This document shows positions 1-1,246 of a DNA stretch of 1,612 bases, piece after piece. This DNA comes from Escherichia coli (GTDB taxonomy: Bacteria > Pseudomonadota > Gammaproteobacteria > Enterobacterales > Enterobacteriaceae). The notes under the pieces were generated by a model. That model was not told the DNA's origin, did not search any database, and was given only the letters and a program-made list of their open reading frames with translations. Every line of letters starts with the position of its first letter. Position 1 is the first letter of the stretch. A program made the position numbers and the translations under genes. The stretch is from NCBI RefSeq assembly GCF_003334255.1, contig NZ_QOWU01000154.1; one strand, 5' to 3'.

Positions 1-734
1 TCCGGCATTCGCTCACTACAGCTTATCCAACCATCCGGAGTTACCGGAGAGTTGCCCGATAGTGCATTCTGCTCCAGTGATGCTTTTACAAACCACGCTG
101 CCTGAACTATAACGCCATGAATCCAGCGCAAATCAGCATCGCGATCTTTCTTTTTCATCTTTTCGCCACTTAAGGCCTTGCTTATGTGGCTGCGTACCAG
201 GTCTTCATGTAATTCCTTCGCCTCCTCAATGGTGAAACCACCAGGCAGAAGAGCCGGAGTTACCGGAGAGCTGGTTGACGCTTCCGGGATTTCCCGAAAA
301 TTATTGGTTGACGAATTCTTGCTTTCCCGAAAGTTTCCGGACTGAAGCATGTCGGTGCGGCAGGCGTTCCATATTTCGGCAGCAATATCGCGCTCGCTAT
401 CGGTTAATTTGTACGTGGAAACATAGCCAGAGAGCATTTCTACGTTTTCCGGAGTTGCTTCTTCCGGCACTACCGGCGCTGGCGGGGCGGCAAATAGATA
501 TCCGCCAAAGTCAGGAAGCTCTCCAATGGCCTGTACGAACTTTTGTTTGCCTACGTCAACTCCTAATGGGTAATGAGCTATAATCTTTGCCACCGGCTCT
601 GCTTCCAGCGATACCAGTGCAATTCGTGCCAGTTCTTCCGCTTCTTCTGCTGGCAGTACAACGTTGCTACCCGGTCCGTATGTTTCGCGCCACTGCTTGA
701 TTGTCAGCAGTCGCCCTTTGGTAATAGTGATCAT
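1..734 (-). CDS. Hypothetical modular phage protein, 3' partial (C-terminus beyond window start); N-terminal domain, S/T/N-rich repeat linker, ~70-aa middle module, then onset of a DUF551-like domain
   Basis: Manual minus-strand translation from ATG (734..732) to position 3 gives 244 codons with no stop: MITITKGRLLTIKQWRETYGPGSNVVLPAEEAEELARIALVSLEAEPVAKIIAHYPLGVDVGKQKFVQAIGELPDFGGYLFAAPPAPVVPEEATPENVEMLSGYVSTYKLTDSERDIAAEIWNACRTDMLQSGNFRESQEFATNNFREIPEASTSSPVTPALLPGGFTIEEAKELHEDLVRSHISKALSGEKMKKKDRDADLRWIHGVIVQAAWFVKASLEQNALSGNSPVTPDGWISCSERMP... The ATG overlaps the upstream stop as ATGA (731-734). Upstream on the minus strand is AAGAAGGAAACGCGGC-ATG, a GGA-type Shine-Dalgarno with ~8 nt spacer, and an in-frame stop lies just upstream (753-755), so 734 is the first possible ATG. 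'GWISCSERMP' at the edge resembles the start of DUF551 domains (recalled from memory, not searched). Missing from the ORF track only because it is open-ended. Confidence 0.75.
   Translation of the reverse strand, partial: MITITKGRLLTIKQWRETYGPGSNVVLPAEEAEELARIALVSLEAEPVAKIIAHYPLGVDVGKQKFVQAIGELPDFGGYLFAAPPAPVVPEEATPENVEMLSGYVSTYKLTDSERDIAAEIWNACRTDMLQSGNFRESKNSSTNNFREIPEASTSSPVTPALLPGGFTIEEAKELHEDLVRSHISKALSGEKMKKKDRDADLRWIHGVIVQAAWFVKASLEQNALSGNSPVTPDGWISCSERMP
35..51. repeat. 17-bp perfect direct repeat, copy A (CCGGAGTTACCGGAGAG); partner at 254-270
   Basis: Exact 17/17 match read directly; copies are 219 bp apart (73 codons, in frame). On the minus strand this copy encodes N-S-P-V-T-P-D, immediately before 'GWISCSERMP'. 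Confidence 0.9.
254..270. repeat. 17-bp perfect direct repeat, copy B (CCGGAGTTACCGGAGAG); partner at 35-51
   Basis: Exact 17/17 match; on the minus strand encodes S-S-P-V-T-P-A at the end of the S/T-rich linker of gene 3. Confidence 0.9.
273..338. repeat. Imperfect 33-bp tandem duplication (2 copies, ~70% identity) encoding an 11-residue S/T/N-rich repeat
   Basis: 273-305 ggttgacgcttccgggatttcccgaaaattatt versus 306-338 ggttgacgaattcttgctttcccgaaagtttcc: 23/33 identical, including shared GGTTGACG and TTTCCCGAAA blocks. Minus-strand translation gives NFRESQEFAT-N-NFREIPEAST. Confidence 0.75.
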
Positions 735-1246
735 GCCGCGTTTCCTTCTTTCTTATTAACAATCACACCGTCATATATTTCATTAAGGTGCCCTCTCAAC
801 TCCATGCGCCTTAATGCAGATAACATGTAATCGCATTCAACCTGCTTATTCCCAGTAAATGGCTTATCGTCAGGATTACCCCAACAGCAATTACCCCTGG
901 GCCATCCATGTACTTTCCGTACTCTTCCGTTAACAACGTGAAGTAATCCCCAGCCGGGAGGTAAATCCTCAACTGAAATAATTTCCGGCTCACTAATAAA
1001 GAATCGCCAGTCGCCCATGCCAAGTGAGGGATTTTTACGGAAACGCTTTTTTCTATCTGCCAACAAGTCAGCACGAGAACACTTCGCCTCTATCAGGCAT
1101 GATGCTGAATTTCTGAATCCCATAGCATCTGGCTGTTCTCCGGTACTGGTTACAGCAACAAAGCGGTCATGAAAGCAAACCTTGAACCCGTTGCGCTTAA
1201 GGAACTTGTACGCAATCTGACAGAGTTCGTGGTGTGTTAACGCCAT
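731..1246 (-). CDS. Small PD-(D/E)xK (restriction-endonuclease-like fold) nuclease-family protein, 171 aa; possibly MmcB-like
   Basis: ORF-track entry 731..1279(-) trimmed to the internal ATG at 1246..1244 (MALTHHELCQIAYKFLKRNGFKVCFHDRFVAVTSTGEQPDAMGFRNSASCLIEAKCSRADLLAD...). That ATG is preceded on the minus strand by AAGGAG (1258..1253) with a 6-nt spacer, and sits 1 nt after the upstream TGA stop (TGA-T-ATG). The track's start at 1279 has no RBS and would overlap the upstream gene by ~32 nt. Nuclease signature read directly from the translation: N-terminal helix with E7, 'GEQPD' (D40, codon 1129..1127), then hydrophobic strand 'CLIEAK' (E53 at 1090..1088, K55 at 1084..1082), the classical D ... 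(D/E)xK arrangement. Family assignment (MmcB-like) is from memory and unverified. Confidence 0.6.
   Translation of the reverse strand: MALTHHELCQIAYKFLKRNGFKVCFHDRFVAVTSTGEQPDAMGFRNSASCLIEAKCSRADLLADRKKRFRKNPSLGMGDWRFFISEPEIISVEDLPPGWGLLHVVNGRVRKVHGWPRGNCCWGNPDDKPFTGNKQVECDYMLSALRRMELRGHLNEIYDGVIVNKKEGNAA
743..747 (-). promoter_or_regulatory. Probable Shine-Dalgarno (AAGGA) for gene 3, inside the 3' end of the nuclease-like gene
   Basis: Minus strand reads AAGAAGGAAACGCGGCATGA: AAGGA with ~8-nt spacer before ATG at 734; start and stop overlap as ATGA. Confidence 0.5.

Follow-up and report, generated by a model that had tools for sequence, protein, structure and literature searches.

A conserved phage gene of Escherichia coli for a PD-(D/E)xK nuclease-fold protein, predicted to be a divergent relative of the MmcB-like and Hjc-like nucleases

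The DNA analyzed here, referred to as the window, is a stretch of 1,612 nucleotides from Escherichia coli (contig NZ_QOWU01000154.1, assembly GCF_003334255.1) with three consecutive genes on its minus strand: the 3' part of an Ead/Ea22-like gene, a small gene that is the subject of this work, and the first part of a modular gene with a truncated DUF551 end. The small gene, hereafter called the nuclease gene for its predicted fold, extends from an ATG at 1246-1244 to a TGA at 733-731, and its 516-nt coding sequence specifies a protein of 171 amino acids (MALTHHELCQ...KKEGNAA); these limits and this length are exactly those of the original prediction, which had been made from the letters of the window. 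The same prediction read the motifs GEQPD40 and LIE53-A-K55 (minus-strand codons 1129-1127 for D40, 1090-1088 for E53 and 1084-1082 for K55) as the D ... ExK signature of a restriction-endonuclease-like nuclease, and our analysis bears out a PD-(D/E)xK fold within a large, conserved family carried by phages. The features of the window are collected in Table 1.

The nuclease gene is packed tightly between its neighbors, with the 1-nt gap upstream and the 4-nt ATGA overlap downstream that had been described for it. The upstream open reading frame ends in ...IKGE and a TGA at 1250-1248, followed by a single nucleotide (1247) and the nuclease ATG; the minus-strand text of this junction, ATC AAA GGA GAG TGA T ATG, has a GGAG 6 nt 5' of the start codon, and the last three codons of the upstream gene form a strong ribosome-binding site for the nuclease gene. 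The K/R-G-E tail of Ea22 proteins has been reported as universal and unexplained (PMC7093339). It is encoded here by AAA GGA GAG, the Shine-Dalgarno sequence of the next gene, and the conserved tripeptide may reflect a translational-coupling or module-boundary sequence rather than a function in the protein. Across the family, junctions most often take the form of a 4-nt overlap, both upstream (28 of 67) and downstream (27 of 67). On the strand of the nuclease gene no sigma-70-like promoter was found in the window, where the few consensus matches occur at chance level, and this absence fits co-transcription with the neighboring genes.

Table 1. Features of the 1,612-nt window, with positions counted from its first letter.
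Feature	Position	Strand	Basis
Coding sequence of the PD-(D/E)xK (MmcB-like/Hjc-like) nuclease-fold protein, 171 aa	731..1246	-	Open reading frame; same coding sequence in phages; fold; 3dnx homology; dN/dS 0.076
Predicted catalytic core, codons E37 to D64	1055..1138	-	Conservation; alignment with Hjc and 3dnx; secondary structure
Codon of E137, invariant residue of the C-terminal helix (N-K-Q-x-E...A-L-R-R)	836..838	-	Invariant in alignments A1 and A2 and in a 66-sequence set
Shine-Dalgarno sequence AAAGGAGAG of the nuclease gene, the last three codons (K-G-E) of the Ea22-like gene	1251..1259	-	Sequence
ATGA overlap of the nuclease stop and the downstream start	731..734	-	Sequence; downstream ATG at 734-732
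3' part of the upstream Ead/Ea22-like gene	1248..1612	-	PF13935, E 6.6e-35, on the full-length PhiR5_1 orthologue
Downstream modular gene, first 244 codons, truncated DUF551 end	1..734	-	Open reading frame; 252 aa in PhiR5_1

It is clear that the open reading frame is a real gene under purifying selection and more than a chance reading frame, since depositors annotated the same 516-nt coding sequence in phage PhiR5_1 (99.4% identical over the window) and in the Stx1 phage AU5Stx1, at least 1000 contigs carry the exact 171-aa protein, homologues of equal length are found in Klebsiella, Lelliottia, Cronobacter, Serratia, Morganella, Providencia and other genera, and the ratio of non-synonymous to synonymous substitution rates (dN/dS) is low. 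This ratio is 0.18 against the AU5Stx1 copy (7 synonymous and 5 non-synonymous changes) and has a median of 0.076 over the 82 informative pairs, counted as those with 0.05 < dS < 1.5. The gene is present in 928 of 5,426 complete E. coli genomes (17%). Among its 1,297 places in E. coli, 248 are on plasmids of 60-100 kb (e.g., p88_0502-1, 99 kb) that also carry phage-type genes, namely an S24 repressor-like peptidase, a toprim protein and several Ead/Ea22 and DUF551 genes, and that are probably phage-plasmids.

The assignment to the PD-(D/E)xK superfamily is supported by the order of the elements in a predicted structure, by a profile link to the structure 3dnx and by the conservation of the aspartate, glutamate and lysine of the signature. 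AlphaFold, run on 36 homologues, gave a confident model (pLDDT 81.7, pTM 0.77) in which the N-terminal helix (residues 5-18) is followed by strands at 22-24, 41-45 and 48-54, a helix at 58-64 and a strand at 80-85. The alpha-beta-beta-beta-alpha-beta core of the superfamily is thereby present in the query, with D40 starting the second strand and E53 and K55 ending the third, which is the canonical arrangement. The structural neighbors of the model include SdaI, PaqCI, FokI and NgoMIV, while in a library of viral structures the neighbors that come next after the members of the family itself are phage proteins named "MmcB-like DNA repair protein."

The connection to a described family required distant relatives. 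Comparison with Pfam and PDB, suggested as a check of the original prediction, came back empty for the 171-aa query itself: the Pfam scan gave no match even at E ≤ 10, and searches against NCBIfam, PADLOC and the PDB sequences gave nothing significant. NCBIfam scans of 10 distant family members had no matches either, and a profile of the close homologues reached 3dnx at an E-value of only 0.6. The same comparison succeeded with a profile of 60 distant family members, which matched 3dnx with 97.7% probability and E 1.5e-12; the link thus emerged through this profile together with the structure and not through direct scans. The target was a fragment (residues 21-114 of 3dnx, rebuilt from a HMMER alignment) that is itself recognized as MmcB-like by Pfam (PF06319, E 4.8e-31), and hmmsearch with the same profile against 3dnx gave E 3.6e-4. 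Scanned individually at E ≤ 0.1, the 60 distant members matched the Pfam models Hjc (23), MmcB-like (11), AHJR-like (3) and UPF0102 (2), all weakly and all within the PD-(D/E)xK clan; at E ≤ 1e-3, PF06319 was matched by one and PF01870 by three of the 60. Among the PHROGs, the query is a clear member of phrog_9263 (E 1e-120) and phrog_631 (E 1.5e-93), both listed as of "unknown function," and has an additional faint match to a "DNA repair protein" family. Clustered at 50% identity, the family as collected by an exhaustive profile search has 3,239 representatives, and 2,451 have E-values of 1e-10 or below. Judged from its profiles and model, the family is a divergent phage-borne relative of the MmcB-like nucleases that lies beyond the reach of current domain libraries.

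Conservation of the predicted active site was assessed mainly in alignments that we label A1, A2 and A3, because the pattern used to scan IMG/VR required E53, K55, S57 and D60 and their conservation in that set is partly circular. Within the 60-sequence distant set, which was gathered without a motif filter and is 33-61% identical to the query, D40, D60, G78, R81 and E137 are invariant and H5, E37, P39, E53, K55, S57, D64, K67, R70, W99 and G100 are at least 90% conserved. D40, E53 and K55 are invariant in two other alignments of the family, and the D ... ExK signature is therefore a property of the homologues as well as of the query. The predicted core has E37-x-P39-D40 at the start of the second strand, E53-x-K55 at the end of the third, and then the helix S57-R58-x-D60-F/L-x-x-D64. 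D40, E53 and K55 align with D42, E55 and K57 of Hjc (1hh1), which are the catalytic residues of that enzyme, and this region also aligns with the IECK/SRADFQAD segment of 3dnx. Common to the family and 3dnx are the segment E-C/A-K-x-S-R-x-D-F-x-A-D-x-K, R81 and an LP..GLL strand. The invariant E137 in the C-terminal helix is a candidate for an additional active-site or DNA-contact residue.

In lambdoid phages the gene occupies more than one position. The original prediction placed it in the leftward operon, and this is correct for PhiR5_1 and AU5Stx1, where it lies between exo-bet-gam and xis-int in the leftward pL exo-xis region. The E. coli chromosomes with a 100% match to the window, on the other hand, carry the three-gene block in the rightward nin-type region, with replication gene P on one side and hokD, RusA and antiterminator Q downstream. 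The Ea22-like/nuclease/DUF551-like block is thus found at the P-Q site in the E. coli prophage (locus L001) and in the exo-xis region of the free phages (L002 and L003), and the module moves between two early operons. The gene is absent from lambda, Phi24B and 933W. The "ea22" homologue of Phi24B is a single DUF550+DUF551 protein (vb_24B_6c; locus L094 2830-3735), and 933W has three small open reading frames between its Ea22-like and DUF551 genes (locus L095 2410-4876); the gap between the Ea22 N-terminal and DUF551 modules is a variable cargo slot, which the nuclease gene fills here. Since lambda, Phi24B and 933W lack the gene, phenotypes published for exo-xis and ea22 cannot be transferred to it. 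We also considered that the gene might always travel with Ea22 and DUF551 genes, a question raised with the original prediction, and rejected this, as only 12 of 68 IMG/VR loci have the gene preceded by an Ea22-like gene or followed by a DUF551-like one. In these loci the gene is nearly always packed tightly with genes on the same strand.

The family extends beyond temperate phages, and this wider context bears on function. In Kuttervirus FEC14, Limestonevirus Kamild, Taipeivirus UPM 2146 and the 157-kb Vibrio phage D494, the DNA primase gene is immediately preceded by a gene for a member of about 205 aa; the primase-linked members retain all catalytic residues and the C-terminal helix. The gene order in Vibrio Mardecavirus is helicase, family member, primase, and in a metagenomic phage the member follows DnaB-N and DUF3987 genes. 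Further neighbors include recombination exonucleases, NinB, RusA, a DprA-like gene, a metallophosphatase nuclease, VRR_NUC and a replication initiator. In the Dickeya phage Kamild an annotated homing endonuclease separates the member from the primase (locus L098 3094-3750), whereas the other Ackermannviridae examined have the two genes side by side, which suggests that the family member is the resident gene at that site. A scan of the nuclease protein and both of its neighbors against the PADLOC-DB v2 defence models gave no match at E ≤ 0.1.

Frame disruption among homologues does occur, in one allele. The copy in E. coli O157:H7 TW14359 is 514 bp long (locus L096 1501-2014), with a 2-bp deletion (ATAGAGGCG to AT--TGGCG) that shifts the frame at the E53 codon, and in the PGAP annotation it appears as two fragments of 58 and 118 aa; the copy in the window is intact and has the same length as the orthologues of other genera. 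The exact deletion allele is found in 216 complete-genome records and is the sole type at the site in 156 of 981 records. It is most simply explained as one inherited event, and its position at a catalytic codon may be a coincidence. The copies in JE86-ST05 (L001 12731-13246) and on plasmid p88_0502-1 (L097 6001-6516) are labeled by PGAP as "hypothetical protein, frameshifted" or as two pieces, although both translate to the full 171 aa and one is 100% identical to the window. We regard this label as an artefact, apparently seeded by O157:H7 fragments serving as reference proteins. Names within the family are inconsistent or wrong as well: "Adenylosuccinate synthase" (many UniProt entries and Shigella phage ChubbyThor), "YraN family protein," "Holliday junction resolvase" and, for the member in Vibrio phage pVa-6, "structural protein," a name derived from "spo1766 structure."

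The flanking genes agree with the original prediction for the upstream Ead/Ea22-like neighbor, while the description of the downstream gene as DUF551-like holds only as a truncated domain, with positions 1-16 of the 68-position model matched (E 3e-4). The downstream gene, labeled "DUF551" or "Ea22," stops 8 codons past the window (the PhiR5_1 copy is at L002 2098-2856), and at the corresponding site of JE86-ST05 PGAP calls two partial DUF551 pseudogenes. It contains a 20-nt direct repeat, CCGGAGTTACCGGAGAG(T/C)TG, at window positions 35-54 and 254-273, which encodes an S-P-V-T-P linker twice, and a 33-nt tandem repeat at 272-335, which encodes an 11-residue repeat (N-F-R-E...). Both are possible domain-shuffling joints.

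Taken together, the reading that we prefer, with a probability of roughly one half, is that the gene encodes a small metal-dependent PD-(D/E)xK DNA endonuclease that processes phage DNA in replication and recombination and is not a defence weapon. The original prediction had offered a defence or anti-defence effector and a recombination or repair accessory as alternatives, and the context leans away from the former and toward replication, recombination and repair, so that its overall interpretation is supported. This role is best supported because of the primase and recombination neighbors, the lack of a defence match and the small number of methyltransferases near the gene, and it is consistent with what has been proposed for MmcB. 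Our analysis shows the reality of the gene, its fold and homology, the conservation of the active-site residues, purifying selection and the genomic associations, and from these we infer the catalytic activity, the substrate and the biological role. The protein belongs to a large, uncharacterised branch carried by phages, whose relatives are the bacterial MmcB-like repair nucleases and, at a greater distance, the archaeal Hjc resolvases. With no promoter of its own, the gene would be expressed early in an infection or upon induction, through translational coupling in whichever early operon it occupies (the pL exo-xis region in free phages, the P-Q nin-type region in the identical E. coli prophage). 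Its predicted active site would comprise D40, E53 and K55, probably together with E37, D60, D64, R81 and E137, and its task would be to cut branched or damaged DNA arising from phage replication and recombination. The lambdoid copies would then play an accessory part beside RusA or RuvC-type resolvases, while in Ackermannviridae and Mardecavirus the protein would belong permanently to the block of primase and helicase genes.

Several points weigh against this reading. The failure of the query to match any Pfam model has been described above, and position 7 of helix 1, the site of the Hjc-type glutamate, varies among E, D, Q and A, with H5 conserved instead. In the literature we found no published biochemical activity for family members or for MmcB-like proteins, and the case for substrate and role is therefore one of guilt by association. 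The neighbors in temperate phages are heterogeneous, and many temperate phages that bear the gene already encode RusA or RuvC-type resolvases, which would make a resolvase role redundant there. Finally, lambdoid phages can dispense with the gene, as it has been lost in O157:H7 prophages and is missing from lambda, 933W and Phi24B.

A more ambitious version, which we offer tentatively and consider unlikely as it stands, sees in the family a phage replication factor that has so far gone unrecognised: a nuclease linked to primase that would process primers, flaps or stalled and crosslinked forks, fixed beside the primase in Ackermannviridae and Mardecavirus and a mobile accessory in lambdoids. 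Alternatively, the lambdoid copies may have been co-opted as early-expressed conflict nucleases, with an activity so costly that O157:H7 has lost it through a break in the catalytic codon.

That the protein is a conflict effector, either an early nuclease that degrades host DNA or disarms host defence or a prophage nuclease of exclusion or abortive infection, seems doubtful to us. The variable exo-xis accessory slot that the gene occupies in free lambdoids, filled by other cargo in 933W and by none in Phi24B, would suit such an effector, as would its patchy presence in 17% of the complete E. coli genomes. The position of several loci after phage DNA methyltransferases, which are anti-restriction genes, points the same way. 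However, neither the nuclease protein nor its neighbors match a PADLOC model, the gene has no sensor, regulator or immunity partner, and with no promoter on its own strand it would be silent in a repressed lysogen. The members syntenic with primase reside in virulent phages, which gain nothing from exclusion. A break exactly at the E53 codon in O157:H7 could reflect selection against a toxic activity, but a single inherited frameshift is not repeated inactivation.

It is improbable that the gene is a free-standing selfish endonuclease gene of the homing type, spreading by cutting alleles that lack it. Homing endonucleases with the PD-(D/E)xK fold exist, I-Ssp6803I being an example, and the nuclease gene is patchy in lambdoids, is inserted at the boundary of two modules that Phi24B has in fused form, and often stands beside conserved replication genes in the manner of the T4 seg and mob genes. 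Yet the 171-aa protein has no recognisable extra DNA-binding domain for reading sequence, and the lambdoid boundaries are ordinary module junctions rather than precise insertions into a target gene. The gene holds a fixed position in four Ackermannviridae lineages, one of which (Kamild) has a separate homing endonuclease inserted, and the strong purifying selection across 3,239 clusters is unlike the rapid decay typical of homing genes.

Methyltransferase neighbors raised the further idea of a restriction endonuclease in a restriction-modification-like pair with a phage DNA methyltransferase, an idea in keeping with structural neighbors such as SdaI, PaqCI, FokI and NgoMIV. A DNA methyltransferase gene lies directly or closely upstream in four non-lambdoid loci (L072 2166-4007, L077 2384-3991, L059 2022-3455 and L084 2529-3347), directly and with a 4-nt overlap in L072. 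Nevertheless, we reject this pairing as very improbable on the grounds of frequency, as a methyltransferase occurs within six genes in only 7 of 80 loci, the adjacent ones belong to different families (phrog_116, 111 and 67), and none is adjacent in the window, PhiR5_1, AU5Stx1 or the Ackermannviridae loci; a sequence-specific restriction endonuclease with no cognate methylase would kill host and phage. Least credible of all is the view of the gene as a decaying or catalytically inactive relic that no longer has a function in the prophage, as the PGAP label on an identical sequence, the truly frameshifted allele in about a fifth of E. coli records and the several pseudogenes in the JE86-ST05 prophage might suggest, since the copy in the window is intact with 171 codons, a length identical to that of orthologues in other genera, retains all catalytic residues, belongs to a family with a median dN/dS of 0.076, and bears that label only as an artefact.

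Despite its size (3,239 clusters), the family is represented by no model in Pfam or NCBIfam and has no known function. It is carried by 17% of complete E. coli genomes and by many Stx-converting phages, and a member is syntenic beside primase in the Ackermannviridae, which are used for phage therapy. Its placement as a divergent MmcB-like/Hjc-like family gives a testable activity and corrects the annotation, and through its phages the family provides a convenient model in which to study the biochemistry of MmcB-type repair nucleases, hypothetical at present.

Comparison with known families places these results in perspective. The closest described relatives are the MmcB-like proteins (PF06319), represented by SPO1766 (3dnx), which has been termed a PD-(D/E)XK structure in a methods paper, and by MmcB of Caulobacter crescentus. 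The latter is an SOS-induced PD-(D/E)XK endonuclease needed for resistance to mitomycin C and cisplatin, although its biochemistry is itself still hypothetical (PMC9578287). Homology to a bona fide member is detectable, yet the query does not match the Pfam model, and the phage family differs in a 7-residue basic insertion (K67-x-F-R-x-x-P73) before G-M-G-D-W-R and in a conserved C-terminal helix with the invariant E137; MmcB is moreover an SOS-regulated chromosomal gene that confers resistance to crosslinking agents, a property known only for the Caulobacter protein, whereas the family gene belongs to a phage early operon. Hjc (PF01870; 1hh1) is of similar size, has the aligned aspartate, glutamate and lysine, draws weak matches from 23 of the 60 relatives and shares recombination and replication contexts, but its Pfam model is likewise unmatched by the query and the helix-1 glutamate among its four catalytic residues is not strictly conserved. 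YraN/UPF0102, AHJR-like, VRR_NUC and the NucS C-terminal domain share the clan and the minimal core, and some UniProt entries of the family are named "YraN family protein," but only 1-3 of the 60 relatives match them, weakly, and their structural scores are lower. phrog_9263 and phrog_631, to which the query clearly belongs, are catalogue clusters that add no mechanism. Because homology is present while membership in both PF06319 and PF01870 fails, the family would best be filed as an uncharacterised sister family in the MmcB-like/Hjc-like lineage. Neither its architecture nor its context is categorically new, and it is an expected kind of gene rather than a new kind of system.

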